NCBI RefSeq assembly: GCF_000025945.1
Contig: NC_006138.1
Coordinates: 570,001 to 602,000 of the forward strand
Direction: 5' to 3'
Origin: Desulfotalea psychrophila LSv54
Lineage (GTDB): Bacteria; Desulfobacterota; Desulfobulbia; Desulfobulbales; Desulfocapsaceae
Length of the DNA: 32,000 bases
Shown here: piece by piece, positions 10,176 through 29,045 of the stretch
How the letters are laid out: each line of letters starts with the position of its first letter
Numbering within the stretch: position 1 is the stretch's first letter
Notes under the pieces: model-generated
Seen by the model: the letters and a program-made list of their open reading frames with translations, nothing else
Told to the model about the DNA's origin: nothing
Database searches by the model: none
Program-made: the position numbers and the translations under genes

Positions 10176-10625
10176 CTATCCCCGCCTTTTAGAGAACATT
10201 TTTTTGTTCCCTGAATAGTGGGGATCCAACTCATAGATATTTGCAATCTGTCTATGCGTTCGCTTTATTTTTGAAATACGCCTGTCCTGACGTAAAATAT
10301 TCCTTCCGGCACGATATACCAAATACCCCCCCAGCCCCACAAATACGGCGAGGAGGCAATAGAGAAGTACGACCAGAGAGAATACATCTGAGATGTGATA
10401 CTGTTTGGAGGTTGCAACCAACAGTCCCAAAACGGAGAGAGGCAGGGCAAGAGTTACAATTCCTATTTTCATCATGGCCAGCGAGGTACGCTTTTCCGCA
10501 AGCACACTCAAGATCTGAGCCGAAGCCTCCGCCACGTTTCTATCATCTTCTTTCTGCTTTTCACTCTCTCTCATAACCGATCCGCACCGTTTTTCCCGCC
10601 TGAGCAACCTTTCCGTATCACCCAT
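10176..10625 (-). CDS. DUF202/YidH-like small membrane protein (paralogue 1)
   Basis: It has an AEKRTSLAMMKIG motif (DUF202 ERT-x-LA-x-x-RT type) followed by 2-3 TM segments. It is a paralogue of 10768..11124. An alternative ATG lies at 10574. Confidence 0.6.
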   Translation of the reverse strand: MGDTERLLRREKRCGSVMRESEKQKEDDRNVAEASAQILSVLAEKRTSLAMMKIGIVTLALPLSVLGLLVATSKQYHISDVFSLVVLLYCLLAVFVGLGGYLVYRAGRNILRQDRRISKIKRTHRQIANIYELDPHYSGNKKMFSKRRG

Positions 10626-10767: not shown

Positions 10768-11124
10768 CTAAAGTGCCAGTTCCTTATGATGGGATTTAAT
10801 TTCCGAGATAAGGGCATCCTGATAGAGGACATTACGCAGGGCCCGAAAGATAAAATAACCACCCAAACAGACCAACATAAGAAGAATACCAATAAGGGGA
10901 ATTAAAAACGAGATAACCCCCATTATATGATAGTATCGTGAGGTTGCTACAAGCAGACTCAAGATAGAGAGGGGAAGCGCCAAGGTTGCAATCCCAGTCC
11001 TCATCAAAGCCAGCGAGGTACGCTTTTCAGCAAGAATCAGCTGGATATTTCTTGCCGCAATGGTACTGCTACGTCTCTCAGCTTCACCTTTCTCAACTTC
11101 GACCATCTGTTCCATAATAATCAC
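10768..11124 (-). CDS. DUF202/YidH-like small membrane protein (paralogue 2)
   Basis: AEKRTSLALMRTGIATLALPLSILSLLVATSRYYH is clearly homologous to the neighbouring ORF (…AEKRTSLAMMKIGIVTLALPLSVLGLLVATSKQYH). Confidence 0.65.
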   Translation of the reverse strand: MIIMEQMVEVEKGEAERRSSTIAARNIQLILAEKRTSLALMRTGIATLALPLSILSLLVATSRYYHIMGVISFLIPLIGILLMLVCLGGYFIFRALRNVLYQDALISEIKSHHKELAL

Positions 11125-13098: not shown

Positions 13099-14580
13099 CT
13101 AAACAGCTGCTGCCAAGCGACGCTTTTTAATGATCTGCCAAACAGGCGTGGCAATAAGGACAACTATAACAGCCCAAAGGCCCAAGGCCTGGGGACTGGC
13201 AAAGAAGATAGAATAACTACCATGCCCCATAATAAGTGCCTGAGCAAATCCTGTTTCGGCAATAGGACCCAGAATAAGACCGAGAATCAGGGCGCCGAGA
13301 GAGAAACCAGCCCGATGGAGGAGTACCGCTGTAATACCGCAGGCAAGAGCGACAAAGATATCAAAGAGACTGTTATTCATCGCATATGCCCCCAAAACAG
13401 AGAAGAGGCAGACAACAGGGATCAGCAAATTGATCGGGGTCAAGGCAATTTTGGCAAAATAGGGCGCCATGCAGAGGCCCATCACCAGAAAGACCAGATT
13501 GGCCACAAATAGGGAGAGAATAAAGGCATAGGTCATGGTGCCGTGGACGGTAAAGAGATCCGGCCCGGGAATAAGTCCATGGACAAGCAAGCCACCGAGC
13601 AGAGCAGCCGCTACACTGTTACCCGGAATACCCAGGGTAAGGGTGGGGATGAGAGAACCACCGACACAACCATTATTTCCAGCCTCAGCAGCTGCAATCC
13701 CCTCGGGATTGCCATGGCCAAAGAGCTCTTTGTTCTTCGAGCGCTGTCTGGCAATATTATAGGACAAAAAGGCGGCAATGGTTGCCCCCTCGCCCGGCAG
13801 AATACCAACAACCGTGCCCACAATGGACCCGGTACCAATGAACTTAGCAAGACCCTTGGGCATGGGTTCCCTCTTCATCTTGGTCAGCTTACTGGTATCG
13901 GCAACGATATTTTTTTCACCGGTCAGCTCCAACATCTGAGAGATAGAGAAGAGACCAATGAGGGCTGGCATAAAGGCAACCCCGTCAAAAAGATCAGTAA
14001 TGCCTCCAGTATAGCGCAACATCCCCGAAATGGGATCTGTACCCACCACTGCTACAACAAGGCCAAGCAGACCTGAAATAAGCGCCTTGATAAGACGACT
14101 TTCATCCTCAGCCATGGAGACAATTCCCGCCAGACCGAGAAGGGCGAGAAGGAAATATTCCGGTGGACCGAAGCTCAGGGCAAAGGAGGCCAGAATAGGT
14201 GCCACCAGGAGAAGCACCAGGGTGGAAAATGTTCCACCGACAAAACTAGAGATAACAGAAACCTTAAGCGCCAATCCTCCCTGCCCCTTCTGGGTCATGG
14301 GATAGCCCTCAAGAGCGGTGGCAACGGCAGCCGGAGTCCCTGGGGTCCGCAACAGAATAGCAGGAATAGAGCCACCGTACATGGCGCCACAGTAAACACC
14401 ACCCATAAGGAGCAAACCTGTGAGCGGTTCTAAGGCAAAGGTAATGGGGATCAAAAGGGCAACCGCCATGGTAGCTGTAAGTCCGGGCATTCCACCTACC
14501 AGAACACCCGATACTGTACCAATAAACACTGCAAGCAGTGAAATCGGTGTCATGAGTTGAGTAAAGGCATCAACAAGCAT
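13099..14580 (-). CDS. tctA: Tripartite tricarboxylate transporter large permease TctA
   Basis: 493-aa polytopic membrane protein with typical TctA sequence (GMPGLTATMAVALLIP..., GYPMTQKGQGG). It lies in tctC-tctB-tctA order. Confidence 0.85.
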   Translation of the reverse strand: MLVDAFTQLMTPISLLAVFIGTVSGVLVGGMPGLTATMAVALLIPITFALEPLTGLLLMGGVYCGAMYGGSIPAILLRTPGTPAAVATALEGYPMTQKGQGGLALKVSVISSFVGGTFSTLVLLLVAPILASFALSFGPPEYFLLALLGLAGIVSMAEDESRLIKALISGLLGLVVAVVGTDPISGMLRYTGGITDLFDGVAFMPALIGLFSISQMLELTGEKNIVADTSKLTKMKREPMPKGLAKFIGTGSIVGTVVGILPGEGATIAAFLSYNIARQRSKNKELFGHGNPEGIAAAEAGNNGCVGGSLIPTLTLGIPGNSVAAALLGGLLVHGLIPGPDLFTVHGTMTYAFILSLFVANLVFLVMGLCMAPYFAKIALTPINLLIPVVCLFSVLGAYAMNNSLFDIFVALACGITAVLLHRAGFSLGALILGLILGPIAETGFAQALIMGHGSYSIFFASPQALGLWAVIVVLIATPVWQIIKKRRLAAAV

Positions 14581-14601
14581 TATTTTCCTCGTTCGGATCG
14601 A

Positions 14602-15054
14602 TTAGGTAAACCAGATACGCTCTGGCAGAGGCACTGAAAGTAGTTGTTCAAAGACAAGGTAGACAAAGAACAGCACTCCTGCTGATGTCAGGACAATACC
14701 TAGCTTTTTACGGGCGCCGAGGGTGATCATGCCCGCAGGAAGAAACAGGGCTGAGGCCATATAGAAACCAAGGGGTTCCAGGGCAACTGAATAGAGAAGA
14801 AGAAGGGCCAAAATCCCCCAAAAACGGAGCGGTGCCTTGCTGATAATGACCTTATCTCTTCCCGCACCTACCTTTGAGAGGCAGAGAAAAAATTCAGCCG
14901 CACAGAGCAGACCAAGTGACAGGGCAAGGAAACGAACATAGTTAGCCGTTGAACCCTGTACGCTCTCAGGATAACTTGCCGTGCTTCTATAAAGAAGCAC
15001 GGCAAGAATCAAGAAGGCGCCTAGAAATAATAGTTCCATTGCGCGTTTTGACAT
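14602..15054 (-). CDS. tctB: Tripartite tricarboxylate transporter small subunit TctB
   Basis: 150-aa protein with 4 TM segments, located between tctC and tctA. Confidence 0.7.
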   Translation of the reverse strand: MSKRAMELLFLGAFLILAVLLYRSTASYPESVQGSTANYVRFLALSLGLLCAAEFFLCLSKVGAGRDKVIISKAPLRFWGILALLLLYSVALEPLGFYMASALFLPAGMITLGARKKLGIVLTSAGVLFFVYLVFEQLLSVPLPERIWFT

Positions 15055-15060
15055 AGCTCT

Positions 15061-16002
15061 CTACCAGGGATTGTTATCATAGAAAGATTGGGTTTCTGCT
15101 TTAAGCTCTAGCAAATACTTAAGATATTCAGCACCATTCAGGGGCCAAAGAGTAAAGACCTGCTTGGTGCACTCGGCAATGAAGGTGGGATCTTTTTGCA
15201 CCTGAGCAAGAAGGTCATCAAGCTTGGCAAGAATTGCAGGATCAACCTGAGCAGGGGCAACAAAACCACGGGTGGCGGTCATGGTTACCTCAAAACCCTG
15301 CTCGATTGCAGTTGGAACGTCAGCAATAATCGGAGAACGACTCCCATCAAGAATAGCAATAATACGCGCCTTGCCAGCCTTATGCTGCGCCTGCAGCTGA
15401 GAGAGATTCATGATACTTGCATCAACGTGGGCGCCAAGAATCATTGCCTTTTGCTCGGTTGAGCCCTTGGTTGGCATAAGGTTAAATTTTATGTCTGCCA
15501 TTTTCTCAATCTTTTTGGCCGCAATAAAGTCATCGGAACCAATGCCGTTTACAGCAGTGGTAAGACTACCTGCCTTGGCGGCCTTAATGAACTGGGACAT
15601 ATTGGTGATATTGCTATCGGTGGGCACGGCAACAATCAAAGGATCCTGCATAACGTTACCCATTACATGAAAGCTATCAAGGGTATAACGGGCGCGCTTG
15701 GAAACAATGTGAGCCACAACCTGGGTGGTAAAAACCATACCAATGGTATGTCCATTTGCCTTGGCTCGGGCAATTTCTTCAAAACCCTTTTGACCACCAG
15801 AACCAGGAACATTCTTGATGACAAAGTTTGCCTCAGGCCAGAATTTCTTGGCTGATTGAATAAAGAGACGGGCAGAAGCATCGGTGGAGCCACCGGCCTT
15901 GGAAGGAACAATAATAGTAATAGGTTTCTTACCAGGATAGTCCTTGGCAAGAGCGGGCATGGCAAACATCAAAATAGCCAACAAAATCAAAATCTTCTTC
16001 AT
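15061..16002 (-). CDS. tctC: Tripartite tricarboxylate transporter substrate-binding protein TctC (Bug family)
   Basis: 313 aa with a signal peptide and the Bug/TctC hallmarks PGKKPITIIVPSKAGGSTD and NVPGSGG. An AGGAGA SD is present. Confidence 0.85.
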   Translation of the reverse strand: MKKILILLAILMFAMPALAKDYPGKKPITIIVPSKAGGSTDASARLFIQSAKKFWPEANFVIKNVPGSGGQKGFEEIARAKANGHTIGMVFTTQVVAHIVSKRARYTLDSFHVMGNVMQDPLIVAVPTDSNITNMSQFIKAAKAGSLTTAVNGIGSDDFIAAKKIEKMADIKFNLMPTKGSTEQKAMILGAHVDASIMNLSQLQAQHKAGKARIIAILDGSRSPIIADVPTAIEQGFEVTMTATRGFVAPAQVDPAILAKLDDLLAQVQKDPTFIAECTKQVFTLWPLNGAEYLKYLLELKAETQSFYDNNPW

Positions 16003-16926: not shown

Positions 16927-18318
16927 CTAAGAGCTTATCCCGTATTTTTTTACCTTTCGGGAAAGAGTCGAACGTTCTACCTTAAAGACCTTGGCCAGGC
17001 TTGAGATAGAATCATGATTCTGCATGCCATAGCGTATGGCCTCTTTCTCCACCGCCTCCATAATATCCTTGAGACTTTTACCACGAAAAAATTTTTCCAA
17101 ATGAAGATCTAAGCCAGCCACCTGCTCACCTTGATCTATATCTCCCCCCTGGCCCCTGTGAATATCCTGTATGGCAAGAGGAAGATCTGCCAGACCAATG
17201 GCTTCATTCTCACAGCTTACCACCAGGCTGAGTATGATGTTTTCAAGTTCCCAAACATTACCTGGCCACTGATAGAGAGACATTGCCTCTTCAACTTCAG
17301 GCAACAAACGGAGCCTACGCTGGTACTGAAGACAAAATCTTTCGAAAAACATATGCGCAAGCGGAATTATATCGACCTTACGTTCACGCAGTGGCGGGAT
17401 ATGAGAAACAGCAACTCGCAGACGATAAAAAAGATCCTGCCTGAAACGCCCCGCCTTCACCTCTTCCTCTAAATTCCGACGGGTTCCGGCAATAATACGC
17501 ACATCGCCTCGTCCATCCTGAAGTGCCTCTAGCAGGCGACTCTGGAGGGGGAGAGGCAGTTCACCAATTCCATCCAGAAAAAGAGTGCCATGCTCGGCAG
17601 CCGTTAAAAACCCCACGCTATCCCCAATATCTATACCTGAAAACTTCTTCGATACTTGATCGACTAGCTCTGACTCTTCAAAATTCTCAGCAATATGGGT
17701 ACAATCAATTTTAAAGAATTTTTTGTCCCGACGGGGACTCATTTCATGTATTTTTCTGGCGAGAATATCCTTGCCTACCCCTGGCTCTCCCAATAACAAA
17801 ATTGTTGCATCGGTGCTCGCTACCCACTCAAGTCTCTGTAAGAGATCCAACATCCCCGAACTCTGAGCCACCAAACGATGCTCTTTAGAGAGAAGTTCCT
17901 CTTTGACCTTGCTGGCCCGCTCGCCCCGACCTGCCTCGGAGCTGTGGGTGACATCACGCACAAAGGTCACCACAAGCTCTACTTCTCCATGGACATCAAA
18001 CAGAGGATGCTCCGCAAGCAGAATCTTCTTGTCACCAACAAGCTGCACGCTGCTGAAGCTCTCACCCGTCCGCACAATTCCAGCATGCTCTACGCCAACA
18101 AAGATACCATCTGCATCAAGGTCATAGACACTCCTGGCCAAAAGATCCTCAGCACGAAGCCCCATCAGCTCTTCGTAGGCCCTATTCAGAGCAAGGGTGA
18201 TTCCCTCTCGATTAGTTATATACAGACCATCAGTGCATAAATTAAAAATTCCAGAGAGATTGTCAGCAATGCGTTGACGATATTCGGGACAAATATATTT
18301 TGAAATTAAACCGGCCAT
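16927..18318 (-). CDS. PAS / AAA+ (sigma-54-interaction-like, degenerate) / Fis-type HTH transcriptional regulator
   Basis: 463 aa. It has an N-terminal PAS-like region (DGLYITNREGITLALNRAYEELMGL), Walker A GEPGVGKD and a C-terminal HTH_8 (ISSLAKVFKVERSTLSRKVKKYGI). Where GAFTGA is expected it reads KFSGID. Walker B reads LFLDG instead of LFLDE. The segment after LLEALQDG is shortened to RGDVR. Confidence 0.85.
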   Translation of the reverse strand: MAGLISKYICPEYRQRIADNLSGIFNLCTDGLYITNREGITLALNRAYEELMGLRAEDLLARSVYDLDADGIFVGVEHAGIVRTGESFSSVQLVGDKKILLAEHPLFDVHGEVELVVTFVRDVTHSSEAGRGERASKVKEELLSKEHRLVAQSSGMLDLLQRLEWVASTDATILLLGEPGVGKDILARKIHEMSPRRDKKFFKIDCTHIAENFEESELVDQVSKKFSGIDIGDSVGFLTAAEHGTLFLDGIGELPLPLQSRLLEALQDGRGDVRIIAGTRRNLEEEVKAGRFRQDLFYRLRVAVSHIPPLRERKVDIIPLAHMFFERFCLQYQRRLRLLPEVEEAMSLYQWPGNVWELENIILSLVVSCENEAIGLADLPLAIQDIHRGQGGDIDQGEQVAGLDLHLEKFFRGKSLKDIMEAVEKEAIRYGMQNHDSISSLAKVFKVERSTLSRKVKKYGISS

Positions 18319-18470: not shown

Positions 18471-18513
18471 AAAAAAAAGCCCCTATCTTCTGTTCTCACA
18501 GAGGCTAGGGGCT
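18471..18513 (-). terminator. Rho-independent terminator after cassette copy 1 (ald)
   Basis: On the minus strand the stem AGCCCCUAGCCUCUG-UGAGAA-CAGAAGAUAGGGGCU is followed by U8 (plus-strand A8 at 18471..18478). Confidence 0.7.
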
Positions 18514-18600
18514 AAAACAAAAACTCTACCAGATTGGTGGGGCAGGAGATCCTCCCCCGCCTCTATGCCAATAGGGCCTAATCTGTTTTTGAGGTATTCT

Positions 18601-19716
18601 CTATGCGAGAACCTCTTCTACTGGGGTGTAAGGCATGTCGAATGCATCACATACACCTTTGAAGGTAAGTTTTCCTTCGTGTACGTTCAAACCAAGTGCA
18701 AGAGCGTGGTTGTCCTGACATGCTTTTTTCCAACCTTTGTTTGCAAGTTGTACTGCAAATGGGAGGGTTGCATTGGTAAGAGCCATGGTAGAGGTCAAAG
18801 GTACTGCGCCAGGGATGTTAGCAACACAGTAATGAACGATCTCGTCTACAACGTAGGTAGGATCGGTGTGAGTGGTAGGCTTAGAGGTCTCAAAACAACC
18901 ACCTTGATCGATAGCAACATCAACAATAGCAGTCTTAGGACGCATAAGTTTAAGATCTGCGCGGGTAAGTACTGAAGGAGCCTTAGCGCCTGGGATAAGT
19001 ACCGCACCAACCACAAGGTCAACCTGTGGAAGAAGCTCGTGGATAGCAGCTTTAGAAGACATGATGGTGGTACAGTTAGCAGGCATTACATCTTCAAGAT
19101 AACGAAGACGATCAAGGTTGATGTCAAGAAGGTAAACTTGAGCGCCAAGTCCACAAGCCATCTTAGCAGCCTGAACACCAACAACACCACCACCGATAAC
19201 CATGATTTTAGCTGGAGCAACACCCGGTACACCACCGATGAGTTTGCCAATTCCGCCGTTTACAGCCTCGAGAGCCTTAGCACCCTGCTGAATTGCCATA
19301 CGACCAGCAACCTCAGACATTGGGGTAAGAAGAGGAAGTGAACGATCTGCCATTTGAACAGTCTCGTAAGCGATACAGGTAGCGCCAGATGCAACCAAAC
19401 CATCGGTTTGTGGCTTATCTGCTGCCAAGTGAAGGTAAGTGAAAACGATTTGACCTTTACGGATCATTGCGTACTCAGAAGGCTGTGGCTCTTTAACGTG
19501 CATTACCATATCAGCTTTTGCATAAACATCTGCAGCTGCATCAATGATGGTAGCGCCTGCTGCTACGTATTCTGCATCAGAGAAACTAGAACCAAGACCA
19601 GCACCTTTCTCTACAATTACATCGTGACCATTAGCTACCATGGTTACAACTCCGCCAGGGGTCATACAAACACGATCTTCTTTGATTTTAATTTCTTTTA
19701 AGATACCTACAATCAT
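18601..19716 (-). CDS. ald: L-alanine dehydrogenase (copy 1)
   Basis: 371 aa. MIVGILKEIKIKEDRVCMTPGGV... matches the AlaDH/PNT family, with a Rossmann fold VMVIGGGVVGVQAA. An AGGAGAAG SD is present. Confidence 0.9.
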   Translation of the reverse strand: MIVGILKEIKIKEDRVCMTPGGVVTMVANGHDVIVEKGAGLGSSFSDAEYVAAGATIIDAAADVYAKADMVMHVKEPQPSEYAMIRKGQIVFTYLHLAADKPQTDGLVASGATCIAYETVQMADRSLPLLTPMSEVAGRMAIQQGAKALEAVNGGIGKLIGGVPGVAPAKIMVIGGGVVGVQAAKMACGLGAQVYLLDINLDRLRYLEDVMPANCTTIMSSKAAIHELLPQVDLVVGAVLIPGAKAPSVLTRADLKLMRPKTAIVDVAIDQGGCFETSKPTTHTDPTYVVDEIVHYCVANIPGAVPLTSTMALTNATLPFAVQLANKGWKKACQDNHALALGLNVHEGKLTFKGVCDAFDMPYTPVEEVLA

Positions 19717-19775
19717 TTTACTTCTCCTAAATTATTAACGTATATAAATAACTGCTACTTATAAATGGGTACTAC

Positions 19776-21155
19776 TTATTTTTGATCAGCAAAAGCCAGA
19801 TCAAGAGCATTTATAACTTCATCAATCTCAGTTTTGCTGGAGATCAATGCAGGGCTAAATGCAAGGGTGTTGTTGTGCTTCTCAAAAGATCGATTAGTAC
19901 GACCAATGATAACACGACTCTTAGCTGCACAGTGACCCGCAACACCTGCGGCAACAGACTCATCAACAGGCTCTTTGGTTGTACGATCTTTAACAAGCTC
20001 AAGACCTTGAAAGAGACCTTTACCACGAACATCGCCAATGATTTCGTACTTATCTTTAAGCTCGAAAAGACGATCAGAAAAGTAATCTCCCATCTTAACA
20101 ACATTGTCAAGAAGATTCTCACGAATGATGATGGCCATGTTCTCAAGAGCGGCTGCAGGACCTGCGGTACATCCACCAAAGGTAGAGATATCACGAAAGT
20201 AATGCATTTTATCACTTGGATCAGCCTTGAAACGATCAAATACAGCCTCGGTGGTTGTGGTACAAGAGATACCTGCGTATCCACTTGCTACACCCTTGGC
20301 CATGGTAACCATGTCAGGAACTACATCAAAGTGCTGATAACCAAACCACTTACCGGTACGACCAAGACCACATACAACCTCATCAATGTGAAGAAGTACG
20401 CCATGACGATCACAGATCTCACGGATGATTGGGAAGTACTCTGGTACAGGAACGATTACACCACCACCTGCGGTGATAGGCTCAAGAATGATTCCACCAA
20501 CGGTCTCTGGACCTTCCGCTTGGATGAGATCTTCAAGGGCATGAGCACACTCGATATTACATTCGCCATATTTTTTACCGAAAGGACAGCGGTAACAACA
20601 GCAGTTGGTAAGCTCAACAAAACCTGGAGCAAATGGACCATACTGTGCTTTACGCTCGAACTGACCGGTGGAGCTCAAAGCGCCAATGGTAGTTCCATGG
20701 TAGTCACGGTCGCGGTAGATGATCTTGTTCTTCTTGCCATCACCTTCAAGGTGAGCAAGCTGACGAATGATCTTAAAACACTTCTCATTTGCCTCAGAAC
20801 CTGAGTTTGAGTAGTAGACACGATCCATTCCTGGCATCTTGTCAAGAAGAGCTTCAGCAAACTGAGCGCCTGGAACACTACCTGCACTTCCTGCGAAGTA
20901 ACAGAGTTTTACCAACTGATCACGTACAGCATTGGCGATAGACTCACGACCATATCCAACGTTTACAGTCCAAACACCACCGGATACTGCATCAAGGAAC
21001 TCATTGCCGTTAGCATCCTTGATACGCATTCCCTTACCCTCAACAACTACCATAGGAGCAGCACCGTCTTTATCATAGGCGCTATGTTGAGTGAGGTGAT
21101 GCCAGCAATTTTTTTTATTTTGGGCGATAACTTTTTTCATTGCTTCTTGTGTCAT
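19776..21155 (-). CDS. Class-III (omega) pyridoxal-phosphate aminotransferase, probably pyruvate-dependent (copy 1)
   Basis: It has class-III aminotransferase features: SGSEANE, the HIDEV.GLGRTG region and the MAKG PLP-lysine motif. The track start at 21173 lies inside the SD. The ATG at 21155 (MTQEAMKK...) is preceded by TAGGAGAAG at proper spacing. Confidence 0.85.
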   Translation of the reverse strand: MTQEAMKKVIAQNKKNCWHHLTQHSAYDKDGAAPMVVVEGKGMRIKDANGNEFLDAVSGGVWTVNVGYGRESIANAVRDQLVKLCYFAGSAGSVPGAQFAEALLDKMPGMDRVYYSNSGSEANEKCFKIIRQLAHLEGDGKKNKIIYRDRDYHGTTIGALSSTGQFERKAQYGPFAPGFVELTNCCCYRCPFGKKYGECNIECAHALEDLIQAEGPETVGGIILEPITAGGGVIVPVPEYFPIIREICDRHGVLLHIDEVVCGLGRTGKWFGYQHFDVVPDMVTMAKGVASGYAGISCTTTTEAVFDRFKADPSDKMHYFRDISTFGGCTAGPAAALENMAIIIRENLLDNVVKMGDYFSDRLFELKDKYEIIGDVRGKGLFQGLELVKDRTTKEPVDESVAAGVAGHCAAKSRVIIGRTNRSFEKHNNTLAFSPALISSKTEIDEVINALDLAFADQK

Positions 21156-21227
21156 GATACTTCTCCTATTCATCCATCTATTAAGAAAGGAGGTGCCTGG
21201 AGTAATCCAGACACCTTCTACTATTTC

Positions 21228-22382
21228 CTAGAAATGTTTTTCCAACATGGTCAAGAGTTGCTTCTCATTACCCTGACGTGGATTATTATCCATCAAACGC
21301 TTAGCTGCTGCAGCGCGGGTAGCAATTCCTGGCAGATCTTCTGCGGTCACACCATAAGGAGCAAGGCCTGGAGCAATATCAAGATCTTCAAGCATTTGCA
21401 CAAATGCATCTGCACAGTAAGCTGCGCGATCTTCTACTGGCTCGTCGCTCTCCACAACGTGGCTCAAGATATCAGCAACAACTGCATACTTCTCTGGGTT
21501 AGACATGTAGTTGTAATCGATACCGATTGGAGCTACTGCTGCCATAAGCAAACCGTGTGGCAACTTATACTTTGCAGGAACAGAGGTACCAACAGCGTGG
21601 ATAACACCGTTCTGGGTATTACCAAAACCCATTCCAGCAAGGGCAGAACCGTAAAGCATTGCCTCACGAGCCTCAAGATTATTACCGTTGGCATATGCCT
21701 TGCGGATATTCTTAGCAATAATCTTCATTGCCTGAAGATTAAGGGCATCCGTGAATGGAGTAGACATAAGGCCTACAAAGGATTCCATGGCGTGAACAAA
21801 GGCATCAACACCGGTCATTGCGGTTATATGTGGTGGAAGACCTGTAGTCAATGCTGGGTCAAGGATAACAGCAGATGCGTAGATATAGTCACTAACGATA
21901 CCAAGCTTTGCGCCGGTCTCGTTGTTGGTGAGTACAGAGATAGAGGTCATCTCGCTACCGGTACCAGCGGTGGTTGGCACTGCAATAAGTGGCATACATG
22001 GTCCAGGAACAACATCAACACCGAAATATTTAGAGATTGGACCTTCGTGAACGGCAAGAACGGATGCAGCCTTGGCGGTATCAAGAGCACTACCACCACC
22101 AAAACCGATGATAACGTCTGCCTTGAATTCCTTAGCAACATCAGCACAATGCTGAATAGAGGTTGCGTTTGGTTCAAGCTCTGCTTTTGCATAAAGAACA
22201 AATTCAATACCTGCATGGGCAAGAGCTTCCTCTACTGCAATGTGCAAACCCAGTGAAGCAAGACCTGGATCAGTCACGATGATGGCGCGCTTGCCACCAA
22301 GACGTTTTACCTCTTTACCTGCGTCAGCAATAGAGCCTGCACCGTGAACAATCTTACTTACGGATTTGAATGTATGGAGCAT
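21228..22382 (-). CDS. Iron-containing (group III) alcohol dehydrogenase / aldehyde reductase (copy 1)
   Basis: It has the Fe-ADH motifs GFGGGSALDTAKA and metal-binding His residues (VHAMESF, IHAVG). The track ORF starts at a GTG (22391). The ATG at 22382 (MLHTFKSV...) follows a GAAGGTG SD. Confidence 0.85.
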   Translation of the reverse strand: MLHTFKSVSKIVHGAGSIADAGKEVKRLGGKRAIIVTDPGLASLGLHIAVEEALAHAGIEFVLYAKAELEPNATSIQHCADVAKEFKADVIIGFGGGSALDTAKAASVLAVHEGPISKYFGVDVVPGPCMPLIAVPTTAGTGSEMTSISVLTNNETGAKLGIVSDYIYASAVILDPALTTGLPPHITAMTGVDAFVHAMESFVGLMSTPFTDALNLQAMKIIAKNIRKAYANGNNLEAREAMLYGSALAGMGFGNTQNGVIHAVGTSVPAKYKLPHGLLMAAVAPIGIDYNYMSNPEKYAVVADILSHVVESDEPVEDRAAYCADAFVQMLEDLDIAPGLAPYGVTAEDLPGIATRAAAAKRLMDNNPRQGNEKQLLTMLEKHF

Positions 22383-22531
22383 GTTAGTCACCTTCTGCTT
22401 TTATTATATAAATTACATAAACACTGCCAGCTACTCAGTGAGGGGCATCAGCCTCTCTTAGAAAGGCATGATAACTTGCTTAAGCATAGTCTCTTCCTTC
22501 GAAAGAAATCATCCTCAACCTTTATAATACA

Positions 22532-22547
22532 TGCAATGGACATGCCA
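22532..22547 (-). promoter_or_regulatory. Sigma-54 (-24/-12) promoter P1 for cassette copy 1
   Basis: The minus strand reads TGGCATGTCCATTGCA, which is TGGCAT-N5-TTGCA against the consensus TGGCAC-N5-TTGCW. It lies about 140 nt upstream of the ADH start. Confidence 0.8.
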
Positions 22548-22630
22548 TTCAAAAGAAAACTCTGTAACTACTTGTTTTTCTTTACTTTATCATAAGCACA
22601 AAATATCCTACCAAACAGCCATGAGTCAAT

Positions 22631-22674
22631 ATTGCATCGTTAACTACCACCAGCCCCAATCTTCGCGATGCAAT
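22631..22674. promoter_or_regulatory. Putative enhancer (UAS) for P1: 9-bp inverted repeat ATTGCATCG ... CGATGCAAT
   Basis: The arms are perfect, at 22631..22639 and 22666..22674, 85-130 bp upstream of the -24 element. The distal arm block CGATGCAAttTCAACT is conserved upstream of P2 at the same distance. Confidence 0.55.
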
Positions 22675-22918
22675 TTCAACTTACTTCCGAAATAACAAAA
22701 AAAGGAGGAGGAAAAAAGAGAACAGAAACAGGAGGAAAGAAGAGTCCTGCCAACCAGCAAAAAAAAACAAGCGAGGCAAGGTGAGATCACTTATAACATC
22801 GCAACATCGTCCAGCCAGAGAGGAAAGCCCAGGCGCAGAGAGCAGGAAAAACAAATTCATTTATCGGCCCTTTCAGGCAATTCTTTTTTGCATTAACTCC
22901 CAAAAAACGCAAGCCAGC

Positions 22919-22957: not shown

Positions 22958-23049
22958 CAGCAAGGAGCGACAACCCAAAAGAGAATGGAAACCTAAACTC
23001 CCACCCTCTATTCAACCAAGGCTACAACTTGCCTTTTTTGAGGTATTCT

Positions 23050-24165
23050 CTATGCGAGAACCTCTTCTACTGGGGTGTAAGGCATGTCAAATGCATCACA
23101 TACTGCTTTGAAGGTAAGTTTTCCTTCGTGTACGTTCAAACCAAGTGCAAGCGCTCTGTTGTCCTGACATGCTTTCTTCCAACCTTTGTTTGCAAGTTGT
23201 ACTGCAAATGGAAGGGTTGCATTGGTAAGAGCCATGGTAGAGGTCAAAGGTACTGCGCCAGGGATGTTAGCAACACAGTAATGAACGATCTCGTCTACAA
23301 CGTAGGTAGGCTCGGTGTGAGTGGTAGGCTTAGAGGTCTCAAAACAACCACCTTGATCGATAGCAACATCAACAACAGCAGTCTTAGGACGCATAAGTTT
23401 AAGGTCTGCGCGGGTAAGTACTGAAGGAGCCTTAGCGCCTGGGATAAGTACCGCACCAACCACAAGGTCAACCTGTGGAAGAAGCTCGTGGATAGCAGCC
23501 TTAGAAGACATGATGGTGGTACAGTTAGCAGGCATTACATCTTCAAGATAACGAAGACGATCAAGGTTGATATCAAGAAGGTAAACTTGAGCGCCAAGTC
23601 CACAGGCCATCTTAGCAGCCTGAACACCAACAACACCACCACCGATAACCATGATTTTAGCTGGAGCAACACCCGGTACACCACCGATGAGTTTGCCAAT
23701 TCCGCCGTTTACAGCCTCGAGAGCCTTAGCACCCTGCTGAATTGCCATACGACCAGCAACCTCAGACATTGGGGTAAGAAGAGGAAGTGAACGATCTGCC
23801 ATTTGAACAGTCTCGTAAGCGATACAGGTAGCGCCAGATGCAACCAAACCATCGGTTTGTGGCTTATCTGCTGCCAAGTGAAGGTAGGTGAAAACGATTT
23901 GACCTTTACGGATCATCGCGTACTCAGAAGGCTGTGGCTCTTTAACGTGCATTACCATATCAGCTTTTGCATAAACGTCTGCAGCTGCATCGATGATGGT
24001 AGCGCCTGCTGCTACGTATTCTGCATCAGAGAAACTAGAACCAAGACCAGCACCTTTCTCTACAATTACATCGTGACCATTAGCTACCATGGTTACAACT
24101 CCGCCAGGGGTCATACAAACACGATCTTCTTTGATTTTAATTTCTTTTAAGATACCTACAATCAT
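23050..24165 (-). CDS. ald: L-alanine dehydrogenase (copy 2)
   Basis: 371 aa, with 4 substitutions relative to copy 1 (I/V, D/E, H/R, G/A). Confidence 0.9.
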   Translation of the reverse strand: MIVGILKEIKIKEDRVCMTPGGVVTMVANGHDVIVEKGAGLGSSFSDAEYVAAGATIIDAAADVYAKADMVMHVKEPQPSEYAMIRKGQIVFTYLHLAADKPQTDGLVASGATCIAYETVQMADRSLPLLTPMSEVAGRMAIQQGAKALEAVNGGIGKLIGGVPGVAPAKIMVIGGGVVGVQAAKMACGLGAQVYLLDINLDRLRYLEDVMPANCTTIMSSKAAIHELLPQVDLVVGAVLIPGAKAPSVLTRADLKLMRPKTAVVDVAIDQGGCFETSKPTTHTEPTYVVDEIVHYCVANIPGAVPLTSTMALTNATLPFAVQLANKGWKKACQDNRALALGLNVHEGKLTFKAVCDAFDMPYTPVEEVLA

Positions 24166-24207
24166 TTTACTTCTCCTAAATTATTAACTTATATAAATGA
24201 ATATTAC

Positions 24208-25587
24208 TTATTTTTGATCAGCAAAAGCCAGATCAAGAGCATTTATAACTTCATCAATCTCAGTTTTGCTGGAGATCAATGCAGGACTGAAGGCAAGGGT
24301 GTTGTTGTGCTTCTCAAAGGATCGATTAGTACGACCAATGATAACACGACTCTTAGCGGCACAGTGACCCGCAACACCTGCGGCAACAGACTCATCAACA
24401 GGCTCTTTAGTGGTACGATCTTTAACAAGCTCAAGACCTTGAAAGAGACCTTTACCACGAACATCGCCAATAACTTCGTACTTATCTTTAAGCTCGAAAA
24501 GACGATCCTGGAAGTAATCTCCCATCTTAACAACATTATCAAGAAGGTTCTCACGAACGATGATGGCCATGTTCTCAAGAGCGGCTGCAGGACCTGCGGT
24601 ACATCCACCAAAGGTAGAGATATCACGAAAGTAATGCATTTTATCACTTGGATCAGCCTTGAAACGATCAAATACAGCCTCGGTGGTTGTGGTACAAGAG
24701 ATACCTGCGTATCCACTTGCTACACCCTTAGCCATGGTAACCATGTCAGGAACTACATCAAAGTGCTGATAACCGAACCACTTACCGGTACGACCAAGAC
24801 CACATACAACCTCATCAATTTGAAGAAGTACGCCATGACGATCACAGATCTCACGGATGATTGGGAAGTACTCAGGTACAGGAACAATTACACCACCACC
24901 TGCGGTGATAGGCTCAAGAATGATTCCGCCAACGGTCTCTGGACCTTCCGCTTGGATGAGATCTTCAAGGGCATGGGCACACTCGATATTACATTCGCCA
25001 TATTTTTTACCGAAAGGACAGCGGTAACAACAGCAGTTGGTAAGCTCAACAAAACCTGGAGCAAATGGACCATACTGCGCTTTACGCTCGAACTGACCGG
25101 TGGCACTGAGAGCACCAATGGTAGTTCCATGGTAGTCACGGTCGCGGTAGATGATCTTGTTCTTGGTGCCATCACCTTCAAGGTGAGCAAGCTGACGAAT
25201 GATCTTAAAACACTTCTCGTTTGCCTCAGAACCTGAGTTTGAGTAGTATACACGACCCATTCCTGGCATCTTATCAAGAAGAGCTTCAGCAAACTGAGCA
25301 CCAGGAATACTACCTGCACTTCCTGCGAAGTAACAGAGTTTTACCAACTGATCACGTACAGCATTGGCGATAGACTCACGACCATATCCAACGTTTACAG
25401 TCCAAACACCACCGGATACTGCATCAAGGAACTCATTGCCGTTAGCATCCTTGATACGCATTCCCTTACCCTCAACAACTACCATAGGAGCAGCACCGTC
25501 TTTATCATAGGCGCTATGTTGAGTGAGGTGATGCCAGCAATTTTTTTTATTTTGAGCGATAACTTTTTTCATTGCTTCTTGTGTCAT
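24208..25587 (-). CDS. Class-III (omega) aminotransferase (copy 2)
   Basis: It shows 8 substitutions relative to copy 1. The ATG at 25587 is preceded by the same AGGAGAAG SD. Confidence 0.85.
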   Translation of the reverse strand: MTQEAMKKVIAQNKKNCWHHLTQHSAYDKDGAAPMVVVEGKGMRIKDANGNEFLDAVSGGVWTVNVGYGRESIANAVRDQLVKLCYFAGSAGSIPGAQFAEALLDKMPGMGRVYYSNSGSEANEKCFKIIRQLAHLEGDGTKNKIIYRDRDYHGTTIGALSATGQFERKAQYGPFAPGFVELTNCCCYRCPFGKKYGECNIECAHALEDLIQAEGPETVGGIILEPITAGGGVIVPVPEYFPIIREICDRHGVLLQIDEVVCGLGRTGKWFGYQHFDVVPDMVTMAKGVASGYAGISCTTTTEAVFDRFKADPSDKMHYFRDISTFGGCTAGPAAALENMAIIVRENLLDNVVKMGDYFQDRLFELKDKYEVIGDVRGKGLFQGLELVKDRTTKEPVDESVAAGVAGHCAAKSRVIIGRTNRSFEKHNNTLAFSPALISSKTEIDEVINALDLAFADQK

Positions 25588-25660
25588 GATACTTCTCCTA
25601 TTCAATCCATCTACAGAGAAAGGAGGTGCCTGGAATCATCCAGACACCTTCTACTATTTC

Positions 25661-26815
25661 CTAGAAGTGCTTTTGCAACATGGTCAAGAGTTGTTTCTCG
25701 TTACCTTGGCGTGGATTATTATCCATCAAACGCTTGGCTGCGGCGGCGCGGGTAGCGATTCCTGGCAGATCTTCCTCGGTTACACCGTAGGGAGAAAGGC
25801 CTGGAGCAATATCAAGATCTTCAAGCATTTGCACAAATGCATCTGCACAATAAGCGGCACGATCTTCTACCGACTCTTCACCAGCCACAACGTGGGTAAG
25901 GATATCAGCAACAACTGCATACTTCTCTGGGTTAGCCATATAGTTGTAATCGATACCAATTGGAGCTACTGCTGCCATAAGCAAACCGTGTGGCAACTTA
26001 TACTTTGCAGGAACAGAGGTACCAACAGCGTGGATAACACCGTTCTGGGTATTACCAAAACCCATACCAGCAAGAGCAGAACCGTAAAGCATCGCCTCAC
26101 GAGCCTCAAGATTATTACCGTTGGCATATGCCTTACGGATATTCTTAGCAATAATCTTCATCGCCTGAAGATTAAGGGCATCTGTGAATGGAGTAGACAT
26201 AAGGCCTACAAAGGATTCCATGGCGTGAACAAAGGCATCAACACCGGTCATTGCAGTTATATGTGGTGGAAGACCTGTAGTCAATGCTGGGTCAAGAATA
26301 ACAGCAGCTGCGTAGATATAGTCACTAACGATACCAAGTTTTGCGCCGGTCTCGTTGTTGGTGAGTACAGAGATAGAGGTCATCTCGCTACCGGTACCAG
26401 CGGTGGTTGGCACTGCAATAAGTGGCATACATGGTCCAGGAACAACATCAACACCGAAGTATTTAGAGATTGGACCTTCGTGAACGGCAAGAACGGATGC
26501 AGCCTTGGCGGTATCAAGAGCACTACCACCACCAAAACCGATGATAACGTCTGCGTTAAAAGCCTTAGCAGCATCAGCACAGTCTTGAATAGAGGTTGCA
26601 TTTGGTTCAAGCTCTGCCTTGGCGTAAAGAACAAACTCAATACCAGCAAGAGCCAATGCCTCTTCCACAGCTACATGCAAACCAAGTGAAGCAAGACCTG
26701 GATCAGTTACGATAATGGCACGCTCGCCACCAAGACGTTTCACCTCTTTACCTGTGTCAGCAATAGATCCTGCACCGTGAACGATCTTACTTACAGATTT
26801 AAATGTATGAAGCAT
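25661..26815 (-). CDS. Iron-containing alcohol dehydrogenase / aldehyde reductase (copy 2)
   Basis: It has the same motifs as copy 1. The ATG at 26815 follows a GAAGGTG SD, with an alternative GTG at 26824. It differs from copy 1 at about 18 residues. Confidence 0.85.
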   Translation of the reverse strand: MLHTFKSVSKIVHGAGSIADTGKEVKRLGGERAIIVTDPGLASLGLHVAVEEALALAGIEFVLYAKAELEPNATSIQDCADAAKAFNADVIIGFGGGSALDTAKAASVLAVHEGPISKYFGVDVVPGPCMPLIAVPTTAGTGSEMTSISVLTNNETGAKLGIVSDYIYAAAVILDPALTTGLPPHITAMTGVDAFVHAMESFVGLMSTPFTDALNLQAMKIIAKNIRKAYANGNNLEAREAMLYGSALAGMGFGNTQNGVIHAVGTSVPAKYKLPHGLLMAAVAPIGIDYNYMANPEKYAVVADILTHVVAGEESVEDRAAYCADAFVQMLEDLDIAPGLSPYGVTEEDLPGIATRAAAAKRLMDNNPRQGNEKQLLTMLQKHF

Positions 26816-26857
26816 ATTAATCACCTTCTACGTTTTATAGTTAATATTTATATTAGC

Positions 26858-28345
26858 TTACGCTTCTTTGGATGCTGGCTGCTGAGCCGGAGCTTTTTTA
26901 CCTTTACCAAAGAAAACTCGACGTGAACTTCCTAAAATGAGAGTACTCTGCTCTTCCGTGGTAAGGGCTTTAAAATCACCCATTCTTGCATTATAGAACC
27001 AAGCGCCAAGGATAACCCAGAGACAGAGAGCAACCCAAGACTGCATGCCAATGGCACCGGGTGAACCCGGAACGGTAAGAAGCAAAATACAGACAACAGA
27101 ACTAATTGAGCCAAGCACTGCATGCATAACACCTCTCTTATTCTGGGCATGCTTCATTACCTTATAGGCACTGAGGCAAGAGATAAGATAGGCAATAACA
27201 GTACCGACAGCAGACATATCAACAACCCAATTCAATACTTCACGACCAAAGAAGGGCGCGGTTACGGCAATGGCAAGAACAAAGAGGATCGCCTTATGAG
27301 GGGTTTGGTATTTTGGATGGATATCAGCAAACCAAGATGGCAGGATGGTTGCCCGACCCATGGCAAAGAGCAGACGAGAAGATGCAATAAAGAAACCATT
27401 GATTCCGGTAAAGATTGCGGCAAGAACAGCAGTGGCAAGAATCACACTACCAACCCGACCAAGGGCCATGTTTGCTACGGTTCCGGTAGCCCAGGGGCTA
27501 TTCATGGCGAGAAGCTCTTTATATGGCATGATGCAGGCAACGGCGATGGTTACCATTGCATAAAGGACAATGCCCCAGCCAATTGCGGAAAGCATGAGCT
27601 TTTCAGCGCGCTTGTGCGGGAAGTCGAATTCCTCAGCTGCCTGAGGAATGGTATCAAAACCCACATAGAGCCATGGTGCAATGGCAACAATGGCCATAAT
27701 ACTGGCAAGCGGGCTCTTGTTATCAGCAAAAAGAGGAGAGAGGTTAGAAACAGCTGCAGTCTCATGGGAAACGGAACCGCCGAAAACAATAAAGACACTA
27801 GCACAGAGGGCAAAGGCAAGGAATACCTGAATCTTACCAACAAGATCTGCGCCACGGAAATTCAAAAACCCACAAAGACAGAGTATGCCGACCAGCATGG
27901 CTATCTCACCTGCATAGACATCCCAGCCAACAATGGAGTACAGCATCCCTACTTCAAAGACGCCCGGGAAAACAAAACGGGTCAGCAGAGAGACAGCTGT
28001 CGCATTCAGGGCAATGATACAGATATAACCAAGCACAAGGGCCCATCCACAGATAAAGGCCACGGTGGGACCAAAACCAACAAAGGAGAAGGCAAAAGCT
28101 CCGCCGGTCACCTTGTACTTACTCACCATATTTCCGTAACTGATTGCCACGGAAAACAGCATTACACCACCCAGAACAAAACCGATGCAAGAGGCAAGTG
28201 GCCCGGCCTGAGGCAAAAAGCGTAGACCTGGTAAGACAAATGCACCCCATCCAAGAATCGCACCCAAGGCGAGGGCCCAAGCCTGAACGGGCTTAATCGA
28301 CTTCTTCAATTCTGCTCTTTCAGTCACTGCTGCTTTCTTATCCAT
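26858..28345 (-). CDS. APC-superfamily amino acid/amine permease
   Basis: About 495 aa with roughly 12 TM segments and a typical APC N-terminus (VQAWALALGAILGWGAFVLPG). The ATG at 28345 (MDKKAAV...) follows a GGGAG SD. The track start at 28375 is a TTG. The gene stops 42 nt upstream of ADH copy 2. Confidence 0.8.
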   Translation of the reverse strand: MDKKAAVTERAELKKSIKPVQAWALALGAILGWGAFVLPGLRFLPQAGPLASCIGFVLGGVMLFSVAISYGNMVSKYKVTGGAFAFSFVGFGPTVAFICGWALVLGYICIIALNATAVSLLTRFVFPGVFEVGMLYSIVGWDVYAGEIAMLVGILCLCGFLNFRGADLVGKIQVFLAFALCASVFIVFGGSVSHETAAVSNLSPLFADNKSPLASIMAIVAIAPWLYVGFDTIPQAAEEFDFPHKRAEKLMLSAIGWGIVLYAMVTIAVACIMPYKELLAMNSPWATGTVANMALGRVGSVILATAVLAAIFTGINGFFIASSRLLFAMGRATILPSWFADIHPKYQTPHKAILFVLAIAVTAPFFGREVLNWVVDMSAVGTVIAYLISCLSAYKVMKHAQNKRGVMHAVLGSISSVVCILLLTVPGSPGAIGMQSWVALCLWVILGAWFYNARMGDFKALTTEEQSTLILGSSRRVFFGKGKKAPAQQPASKEA

Positions 28346-28494
28346 CAAAATGCGCTCCCAAAACTGTGCTGCCAAAAACGACAGCTTATAAATAATAAGT
28401 GATGACCCTAACTGTCATCACGTAAAAGTCTCAATTCATCTGAGTCACAAAGTTTTTGGTGCAAAAAAACTGCTCCTTCGCCTTCGACCCACCA

Positions 28495-28510
28495 TGCAAA
28501 GCCCATGCCA
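28495..28510 (-). promoter_or_regulatory. Sigma-54 (-24/-12) promoter P2 for permease + cassette copy 2
   Basis: The minus strand reads TGGCATGGGCTTTGCA (TGGCAT-N5-TTGCA). It lies about 150 nt upstream of the permease ATG. Confidence 0.8.
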
Positions 28511-28586
28511 CAATTTAAAAATATACCATAAGACAACGACTTTACTCAGCTTGCCGCTAGAGCATTCCGCGCAACAATGAAATTTT

Positions 28587-28637
28587 AATGCATCCTAAAC
28601 TCATTTAATCGAATTAGCCACATATTTACGATGCAAC
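28587..28637. promoter_or_regulatory. Putative enhancer (UAS) for P2: AATGCATCC ... CGATGCAAC
   Basis: Half-sites lie at 28587..28595 and 28629..28637. CGATGCAAcaTCAACT starts exactly 120 bp from the -24 GG, as it does at P1. Confidence 0.5.
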
Positions 28638-29045
28638 ATCAACTCATCATTGTATCAAAAAATGACGTCTCACAAAGTGATATTTTTCACATCTCAACAA
28701 AGGTCTTACAATTAACTAGTTTAACACTGCTTTTTTTGTGAAGTAACTGAGTTTACACCCTTCGCCATATCCTCAACAAAAACAAAAATGAGTCCATTAT
28801 GAATTAAACAGGTAAATGAGGACAATAATAAAACAGCACGACTTAAACAGCTCCTCCTACCAAGAAAGGCATATACCTCACAGCCAACATCCTGTTTTGA
28901 CAAAAAAATAGCAATAGCTTATATTTTTTCCACAGCTATCGCCCAGCAATTGATAGCCGAACCCAATAAAAACAATCTACAGAACTTAAGCCTTCAGTAT
29001 CGCCCATGAATACAAGCAAATAAACCTTCATCAATAGGACATGAC

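Follow-up and report, generated by a model that had tools for sequence, protein, structure and literature searches.

A degenerate, probably orphaned enhancer-binding protein homologue beside the duplicated taurine operons of Desulfotalea psychrophila LSv54

Locus and domain layout

The window analysed here is a stretch of 32,000 nucleotides (nt) of Desulfotalea psychrophila LSv54 (contig NC_006138.1, positions 570,001–602,000); coordinates without a locus label refer to it. The gene under study, 16927–18318 (−), encodes a protein of 463 amino acids (aa), labelled P0001, that is homologous to enhancer-binding proteins (EBPs) of sigma-54. Directly upstream of it lies a tandem duplication of sarD-tpa-ald (18586–22391 and 23035–26824), i.e., genes of an Fe-alcohol dehydrogenase (SarD), a class-III aminotransferase and an alanine dehydrogenase. 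Other proteins carry the labels P0002–P0133, and homologue-bearing loci in other genomes the labels L001–L017. Features of the window are collected in Table 1.

The open reading frame (ORF) of P0001 is full-length; both N- and C-termini align with homologues, and hence no stop, frameshift or truncation is present. An architecture of the NtrC family with PAS, AAA+ and helix-turn-helix (HTH) domains had been assigned in a preliminary description made from the sequence letters; it was borne out by Pfam, which returned PAS_4, Sigma54_activat (PF00158), AAA_lid_14 and HTH_50. The Sigma54_activat match (E 4e-39) scored 134 bits vs. 225 bits for P0005 and 212 bits for P0130, two intact EBPs listed on the same contig. 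P0001 has an AAA+ domain of the Sigma54_activat family together with an EBP-type lid. Many NCBIfam EBP equivalogs match it, all with scores far under their respective cut-offs. Codon usage of the gene is ordinary for the window and does not discriminate between the explanations considered below.

Motif lesions of the AAA+ core

Lesions were checked by three alignments, with NtrC1 (PDB), with the 19 nearest homologues and with 119 homologues; the main comparison is the 120-sequence alignment of P0001 and its 119 closest homologues, to which counts out of 119 refer. The GAFTGA loop, earlier reported as lost, is indeed absent: ESELVDQVSKKFSGIDIGDSVGF occupies the position of the family sequence ESELFGYxPGAFSGAxxKGKxGF, so that GAFSGA (115/119 homologues) is replaced by KKFSGI and ELFGY by ELVDQ; the columns F219, G220, G224, F226 and G228 are invariant across the other 119 sequences. 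Comparison at the DNA level resolved the L1 change into point substitutions. A compensated pair of frameshifts was considered as its source and rejected, as stop codons fill the other frames and the DNA alignment holds codon by codon. The exchange of DE for DG in Walker B (E250G) was likewise confirmed, Glu being found in 119/119 homologues.

The region after LLEALQDG had been described as shortened through loss of the arginine-finger segment. The shortening stands, the identity of the lost piece does not. P0001 reads DGRGD where homologues read DGEIxRVGxTKxxKVD; between the columns Q267 and V273 it has 5 residues and 119/119 homologues have 16, which corresponds to a deletion of 11 residues by a clean in-frame excision of 33 nt. 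The piece removed is the insertion ahead of sensor I (pre-SIi), or L2 loop, the role of which is treated in PMC2745333. The arginine-finger motif FRQDLFYR is intact and aligns with FREDLYYR of NtrC1 (R293 invariant; R299 = R in 117/119 homologues); R299 of NtrC1 is the arginine finger and corresponds to R168 of PspF (PMC7175178).

Three lesions are additional to those first described: T179P in Walker A (T in 117/119 homologues; K183 invariant), N280R in sensor I (N in 110, S in 6 and H in 3 of the 119 homologues, R never) and R356W in sensor II (GNVWELEN vs. GNVRELEN; R in 119/119). In sensor I, A278, an Ala in all 119 homologues, is also changed, T279 being kept. The changes at F219, G220, G224, E250, A278 and R356 and the 11-aa deletion are shared by 0/119 homologues and are thus unique to P0001 in this set. 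P0001 differs at 18 of the 105 columns that are invariant in the 19 nearest homologues, the differences being clustered at residues 214–250. The catalytic set now comprises K183, D249, T279, R293 and R299 (kept), with E250, N280 and R356 lost.

Single changes at several of the lesion sites are enough to abolish function in PspF and NifA (PMC3162934, PMC2745333, PMC7175178). Because P0001 no longer has L1, L2, the Glu of Walker B, the Asn of sensor I or the Arg of sensor II, it is almost certainly unable to remodel the sigma-54 holoenzyme, as had been supposed, and there is little doubt that it is incapable of acting as a sigma-54 activator; from these lesions we infer loss of both ATPase and sigma-54 activity.

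Relatives and substitution rates

The nearest non-self matches to P0001 are 49–51% identical; none above 51% was found in a search of 5.8 billion proteins, and the gene is therefore a singleton. P0005 (49% identical) is named Desulfotalea psychrophila LSv54. The HTH of P0001 is 67–71% identical to that of P0002–P0004, P0007 and P0008 vs. 37–44% for other clades, and its recognition helix ERSTLSRKVKKY is common to this clade, starting alike (ERSTLSRK) in P0001 and P0002–P0004; PAS and AAA core are equidistant from all clades.

A relative-rate test was made with P0002 as sister and P0005 as outgroup, unique changes being counted per domain (P0001 vs. P0002): PAS, 27 vs. 8 (p = 0.002; otherwise-invariant G61, L77 and N78 are altered in P0001); AAA alpha/beta, 35 vs. 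10 (p = 2.5e-4); lid, 17 vs. 9 (not significant); HTH, 3 vs. 4 (no difference); HTH vs. AAA core, Fisher p = 0.01. Substitution is thus not uniform over the gene: the acceleration, 3–4 times the rate in sister proteins (AAA core 3.5 times), is limited to PAS and AAA core, HTH and lid evolving at the sister rate. The ATPase core is normally the slowest-evolving part of an EBP; in P0001 this order is reversed.

The genes of P0002 and P0004 lie directly upstream of glycyl radical enzyme and activase genes. Enzymes of this type beside P0001 relatives score as the NCBIfam equivalog HpsG (sulfopropanediol) with 1510–1572 bits, above the cut-off; a protein 88% identical to such an enzyme is named isethionate sulfite-lyase by the Joint Genome Institute (JGI). 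The substrate assignment is ambiguous, because the HpsG and isethionate names differ and the enzyme of L016 shares an island with taurine genes. Such loci of P0001 relatives are L016:1–9100, L001:11968–15595 and L003:2465–6136. The regulator–enzyme spacers of the P0002 and P0004 loci hold three GTGCA-N4-TGCAC-like palindromes and a TGGCACG-N4-ATGTA element. The palindrome is absent from every intergenic region of the window; at two mismatches or fewer, four matches were found there, all in coding sequence and below the shuffled expectation. The 120 best relatives of the Desulfosediminicola glycyl radical enzyme (all at least 76% identical) include enzymes of Halodesulfovibrio and Desulforhopalus and none from the genome of P0001, which hints that the ancestral target enzyme is possibly missing from this genome.

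Two members of the same HTH clade, P0007 (L004:255–1667) and P0008, carry GAFPGA/GAFPGG and a Walker A of GEVGVGKG; the substitution rate of their AAA cores matches that of P0001. The P0007 gene adjoins an HDOD-GGDEF gene, and a -24/-12 element is not obvious there. They may form a second atypical branch of the clade.

Taurine operons and their control regions

SarD passes the NCBIfam equivalog SarD (sulfoacetaldehyde reductase) with 723.6 bits (cut-off 700), and sarD-tpa-ald is assigned from its gene content as a taurine-to-isethionate module. Nucleotide identity between the two copies is 96–97% across ald and tpa, as against 88% for the 5' end of sarD; an amino-acid permease gene (26858–28375) heads copy 2 only. 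The GC content at third codon positions of the duplicated genes is 0.34–0.38 vs. 0.40–0.64 (mostly 0.45–0.59) for other genes of the window. A stem-loop terminator (18478–18513) sets the P0001 gene apart from the upstream taurine operon.

Each copy is preceded by a sigma-54 promoter, P1 (copy 1) and P2 (permease and copy 2); these are the only matches to TGGCA-N6-TTGCW in the window, 0.32 being expected, and no sigma-54 promoter was found in the window scan upstream of the P0001 gene or of tctCBA. The element TTGCATCG stands exactly 126 nt upstream of TGGCA at both P1 and P2, the rest of the flanks being unrelated. Further exact copies of TTGCATCG occur in coding sequence, at 17805–17812 (+) in the regulator gene and at 28183–28190 (−) in the permease gene, probably by chance.

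A genome scan with SarD, which did not return the source genome itself, yielded the operon permease-sarD-tpa-ald in six loci (L007–L012), with SarD identities of 80–82% in four loci of Halodesulfovibrio and close Desulfovibrionaceae and of 59–70% in two remoter Desulfovibrionaceae. Their control regions were compared with 22392–22760 and 28376–28740 of the window. All six have, roughly 150 nt upstream of their permease genes, a TGGCAC-N5-TTGC promoter; each carries TTGCATC(G) (-102 to -144) and/or AATGCAA (-77 to -91), 4/6 having both, and the promoter flank ATGCAAnAnTGACTCA is common to P1 and the Desulfovibrionaceae loci. The conservation of promoter, upstream element and flank across these genomes suggests that the whole taurine cassette, including its control region, was moved horizontally.

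Candidate activator of P1 and P2

In Halodesulfovibrio aestuarii the operon is adjoined by a divergent gene (L008:6434–8200) for a PAS-EBP of 588 aa with intact motifs. A large PAS-EBP beside the taurine operon was verified at three loci, L008, L016 and L017; P0133 (Desulfosediminicola, L016:10001–11734) and P0128 (L017:3304–5034), orthologues of the L008 protein, adjoin sarD-tpa-ald. The permease gene stands beside the taurine EBP in L008 and L016; TTGCATC is present upstream of the sarD promoter in L016 and was not found there in L017. The proteins of this family (574–588 aa) have an extra N-terminal region of about 125 aa without Pfam match, and no name for the family was found in the literature; they are candidates for a taurine-responsive sigma-54 activator. 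The L008 member is 31% identical to P0001.

A protein of this family, P0130 (574 aa, 58% identical to the L008 EBP), is named Desulfotalea psychrophila and is assigned to the same contig as P0001. Its motifs are intact (GETGTGKT, GAFSGA, LFLDEIGE, RRLGGTK, FREDLYYR, GNVRELR), and its recognition helix SQSTVVRKAQRY is near-identical to SQSTIVRKAQRY of Halodesulfovibrio. P0130 is not encoded within the window (tblastn). A remnant of a cognate taurine EBP was also sought in the window; tblastn with the Halodesulfovibrio EBP matched only the P0001 gene (31%), and the idea of such a remnant was rejected. According to the supplement of PMC3162934, D. psychrophila possesses sigma-54 along with about 19 EBPs; the list of EBPs with defective GAFTGA given by Francke et al. 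has one D. psychrophila entry, DAFIG, which is a different protein (PMC3162934).

Since P0001 cannot, by its lesions, be expected to remodel the sigma-54 holoenzyme, P1 and P2 would need another EBP, as the preliminary description had foreseen. Upstream sites that are conserved elsewhere beside a PAS-EBP point to P0130 as the likely activator of both promoters; most likely P0001 is not their activator, and P0130 is encoded elsewhere in what is apparently the same genome. The idea that P0001 acts on the TGCATCG sites found no support, its HTH belonging to another clade that goes with GTGCA-N4-TGCAC palindromes. The adjacency of the P0001 gene to P1 and P2 looks like an island arrangement and not like a regulatory pairing.

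Domain-based annotation would wrongly call P0001 a sigma-54 activator, and a false regulon would result if the neighbouring taurine genes were placed under its control. The cassette seems to be mobile between Desulfovibrionaceae and genomes of the Desulfobulbales type; its regulon would rather be assigned by the conserved TTGCATC(G)...ATGCAA element and the distinct 574–588-aa PAS-EBP family; this assignment is a more useful by-product than P0001 itself.

Functional protein or decaying gene

An AlphaFold2 model of P0001 (120-sequence alignment) was predicted with confidence (mean predicted local distance difference test score, pLDDT, 85.9); the only low-confidence stretches are the PAS–AAA linker (126–145), the L1 loop (220–233) and the pre-HTH linker (394–403), pLDDT being <50 at the rewritten L1 loop. 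A Foldseek search with the model gave the best E-value for NtrX, an unconventional EBP, followed by FleQ, LuxO and NtrC1; target-normalised TM-scores to the domain-only AAA+ entries FleQ, LuxO and NtrC1 were 0.83–0.85. The 58–95 lineage-specific replacements, if neutral, would be accompanied by 3–5 expected stop codons, which corresponds to a probability of no stop of about 0.045 to 0.006; the wider range obtained for neutral extra divergence is about 0.006–0.12, with frameshifts and indels uncounted. The single indel of the AAA+ core is in frame and takes out exactly one surface hairpin. Open frame, rates and model together favour, indirectly, a protein that is still produced and still binds DNA.

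P0001 is probably a lineage-specific, degenerate and unconventional EBP homologue that has been orphaned. It would have originated from an intact PAS-EBP of the clade P0002–P0004, next to sulfonate glycyl-radical-enzyme operons. In its lineage the L1 contact motif for sigma-54 was overwritten by substitutions, the L2/pre-sensor-I hairpin was deleted and three residues that act in cis in ATP hydrolysis (the Glu of Walker B, the Asn of sensor I and the Arg of sensor II) were lost. It has retained a foldable AAA+ core in which the Lys of the P-loop, the Asp of Walker B and the two arginine fingers are present, together with the lid and an HTH still under constraint. Its present role may be that of a repressor or a sigma-70-type regulator, as for TyrR, NtrX or VpsR, possibly with binding of nucleotide or ligand; the predicted targets are sites of the GTGCA-N4-TGCAC type beyond the window. 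Retained DNA binding and the target sites are both inferred. An ATPase-independent DNA-binding regulator acting at sites outside the window, with P1 and P2 served by P0130, is given a probability of roughly one half.

Several points weigh against this assignment. An orthologue with the same lesions was not found (none above 51% identity; 0/119 homologues share them), and because P0001 is a singleton a conserved degenerate state cannot be demonstrated. With the closest relative at about 50% identity, saturation is to be expected at synonymous sites, and the ratio of nonsynonymous to synonymous substitution rates is therefore not estimable. The acceleration extends to the PAS sensor; it would suit a changed ligand and general decay equally. 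The rate tests rest on few sites (49 in the HTH) and on an assumed tree topology. No candidate binding site or target gene for P0001 was found in the window, and the genome position of P0130 and its binding to TTGCATCG are taken from synteny in other genomes.

The best-surviving alternative is a functionless relic: the target glycyl-radical-enzyme operon would have been lost through rearrangement or incomplete acquisition of the organosulfonate island, and the gene would be drifting to a pseudogene, its frame open by chance or youth. Consistent with this are the hit on every functional motif at once, the accelerated PAS sensor, the singleton status without a detected orthologue, the position of the gene beside none of the gene types its relatives control, the lack of a D. 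psychrophila entry when the Desulfosediminicola glycyl radical enzyme is compared with its 120 best relatives (at least 76% identical), and the absence of the predicted GTGCA-N4-TGCAC site from intergenic regions of the window. Against it stand the 463-codon frame, still open despite about 58–95 replacements (neutral probability of about 0.006–0.12), the in-frame removal of exactly one surface hairpin, HTH and lid at sister rate beside an AAA core 3.5 times faster, and a fold that is predicted with confidence; moreover, the enzyme comparison covers the best 120 relatives only, and absence from the genome is unproven by it. Decay without function is possible and holds a substantial minority of the probability.

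It is rather improbable that P0001 is an anti-activator or heteromer partner at P1 and P2 that damps or tunes expression of the taurine operons, either by binding their upstream sites or by co-assembly with the true activator via arginine fingers and ring interfaces. In favour of it, the gene follows directly downstream of copy 1; P0001 keeps its lid, its arginine fingers and the Lys of the P-loop but has lost the catalytic residues that act in cis; the recognition helices of both EBP types have an ST-x-x-RK pattern and both site types a TGCA core; and co-operating EBP pairs such as HrpR/HrpS are known (PMC3105312). However, the HTH of P0001 is of the clade associated with GTGCA-N4-TGCAC and not of the P0130 clade that accompanies TTGCATCG, identity to the cognate-type EBP is only 31%, and the gene is a transcription unit of its own behind a terminator. 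In no other genome examined does a P0001-like protein stand directly beside the taurine operon; the island of L016 does include a PAS-EBP of 483 aa with 37% identity to P0001, but its neighbours are the glycyl-radical-enzyme genes. In the stricter form, P0001 would be a dead EBP subunit that binds nucleotide without hydrolysis and modulates sigma-54 transcription of the duplicated taurine operons, by occupying or bridging the upstream sites or by poisoning or tuning the activator ring via its arginine fingers; such a dedicated pseudo-ATPase anti-activator on an EBP scaffold we regard as a long shot.

A still working sigma-54 activator, in which F-S-G of KKFSGI would contact sigma-54, might be argued from the retained F226, S227 and G228 and from the two sigma-54 promoters beside the gene, but is very improbable: the Glu of Walker B, the Asn of sensor I, the Arg of sensor II and the entire L2 loop are lost together, the homologue family is invariant at the changed positions, and in PspF and NifA one substitution within GAFTGA or pre-SIi is enough to cripple activation or ATPase (PMC3162934, PMC2745333). 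A sequencing or assembly artefact that created false substitutions, for which no evidence was found, is hardly credible in view of the many independent point substitutions with a clean 33-nt in-frame deletion, alternative frames full of stops, and the indexing of P0001 on a finished-size contig of 3.5 Mb.

If the preferred assignment as a DNA-binding regulator is correct, P0001 would be among the most thoroughly stripped natural EBP derivatives and would help to ask what an EBP scaffold can do once its motor is gone. As a relic, it would be a snapshot of the domain-by-domain decay of an orphaned activator.

Other features of the window

A TctC-TctB-TctA operon of a tripartite tricarboxylate-type transporter, 13099–16002 (−), lies beyond plsY from the regulator gene; upstream of tctCBA only a TGGCAG...TTGACA stretch and no -24/-12 element is seen. 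The ORF 29769–30386 (+) encodes a protein of 205 aa, the domains of which are of the nitrite/sulfite-reductase ferredoxin-like and 4Fe-4S types; in Desulfosediminicola an equally long counterpart (L016:9165–9782) stands between TauE and the taurine EBP, and the protein may be a conserved part of organosulfonate islands. A direct repeat of 110 nt (74% identical), 10393–10502 and 10925–11034, spaced 532 nt, overlaps an ORF of 149 aa, for which Pfam gives one weak match (E 0.0085) under the gathering threshold.

Table 1: Predicted features of the P0001 gene and of the taurine operon control regions (window coordinates).
Feature	Position	Strand	Basis or remark
P0001 gene, degenerate PAS / AAA+ / lid / HTH EBP homologue, 463 aa	16927–18318	−	ORF, Pfam
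PAS sensor domain, aa 18–128, fast-evolving	17935–18267	−	Pfam PAS_4, E 3e-07
AAA+ alpha/beta subdomain, aa 149–305, fast-evolving	17404–17874	−	Sigma54_activat
Walker A GEPGVGKD, Lys kept, T to P at position 3	17767–17790	−	alignment
L1 loop region VDQVSKKFSGIDIGDSV in place of FGYxPGAFSGAxxKGKx, GAFTGA motif lost	17614–17664	−	alignment
Walker B TLFLDGIGE, catalytic Glu to Gly	17560–17586	−	alignment
DGRGD, junction of 11-residue in-frame deletion, pre-sensor-I insertion / L2 hairpin removed	17503–17517	−	alignment, DNA comparison
Sensor I AGTRR (family AATNR), Thr kept, Asn to Arg	17476–17490	−	alignment
Arginine-finger motif FRQDLFYR, retained	17422–17445	−	alignment
AAA+ lid subdomain, aa 306–388, normal rate	17155–17403	−	AAA_lid_14, E 6e-19
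Sensor II GNVWE, Arg to Trp	17248–17262	−	alignment
Fis-type HTH, C-terminal, aa 413–461, conserved	16936–17082	−	Pfam HTH_50
Stem-loop and T-run after ald copy 1	18478–18513	−	16-nt arms, 88% complementary
P1, -24/-12 sigma-54 promoter TGGCATGTCCATTGCA of sarD-tpa-ald copy 1	22532–22547	−	motif scan
P1 upstream putative activator site, inverted repeat AGTTGAAATTGCATCG-N26-CGATGCAATATTGACT, 16-nt arms	22624–22681	−	repeat scan, synteny
P2, -24/-12 sigma-54 promoter TGGCATGGGCTTTGCA of permease-sarD-tpa-ald copy 2	28495–28510	−	motif scan
P2 upstream site TTGCATCG	28629–28636	−	offset -126, as at P1

Comparison with known systems

A pseudo-EBP next to sigma-54 promoters had at first been called unusual, which was overstated: EBPs that lack GAFTGA and act without sigma-54 are a described class (PMC6158489, PMC3162934, bioRxiv 10.1101/2023.06.06.543975). 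Described members are TyrR and DhaR of E. coli, PhhR of P. putida, HupR and NtrC of R. capsulatus, NtrC of Caulobacter, NtrX of B. abortus, VpsR of V. cholerae and HsfA of M. xanthus; such defects occur in roughly 2% of EBP homologues (PMC3162934). The features by which the class is defined, an EBP architecture and a defective GAFTGA (PMC6158489, PMC3162934), are both present in P0001, i.e., a sensor, a Sigma54_activat AAA+ domain and a Fis-type HTH without a functional GAFTGA loop; a degenerate state conserved among orthologues, also a feature of the class, was not found for it. VpsR likewise has a non-consensus Walker B (PMC6158489), and NtrX is the best Foldseek match by E-value. The described members differ in being conserved orthologous families with known sigma-70 targets, whereas P0001 is a singleton with predicted target sites. 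In P0001, L1 was overwritten by substitutions and not deleted; it also lacks L2, the Asn of sensor I and the Arg of sensor II; and PAS takes the place of a receiver or ACT domain as its sensor.

With the intact P0002–P0004, P0001 shares 49–51% full-length identity (HTH 67%), domain order and length; they differ from it in keeping GAFSGA, DE, the hairpin of L2 and both sensor motifs, and in that their genes adjoin a sigma-54-like promoter with GTGCA-N4-TGCAC sites, which the P0001 gene does not. The taurine PAS-EBPs have the same PAS / AAA+ / HTH_50 architecture and the same genomic association with permease-sarD-tpa-ald, but are only 31% identical; their N-terminus is longer by about 125 aa, their motifs are intact and their recognition helix differs (SQSTVVRKAQRY in P0130). 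Walker B Glu mutants of NtrC1 (E239A, PDB 3M0E) and PspF (E108) bind ATP without hydrolysis (PMC7175178); the residue removed in them is, by alignment, the catalytic residue lost in P0001, yet they are laboratory point mutants with L1 and L2 kept, whereas P0001 is a natural protein that carries several more lesions.

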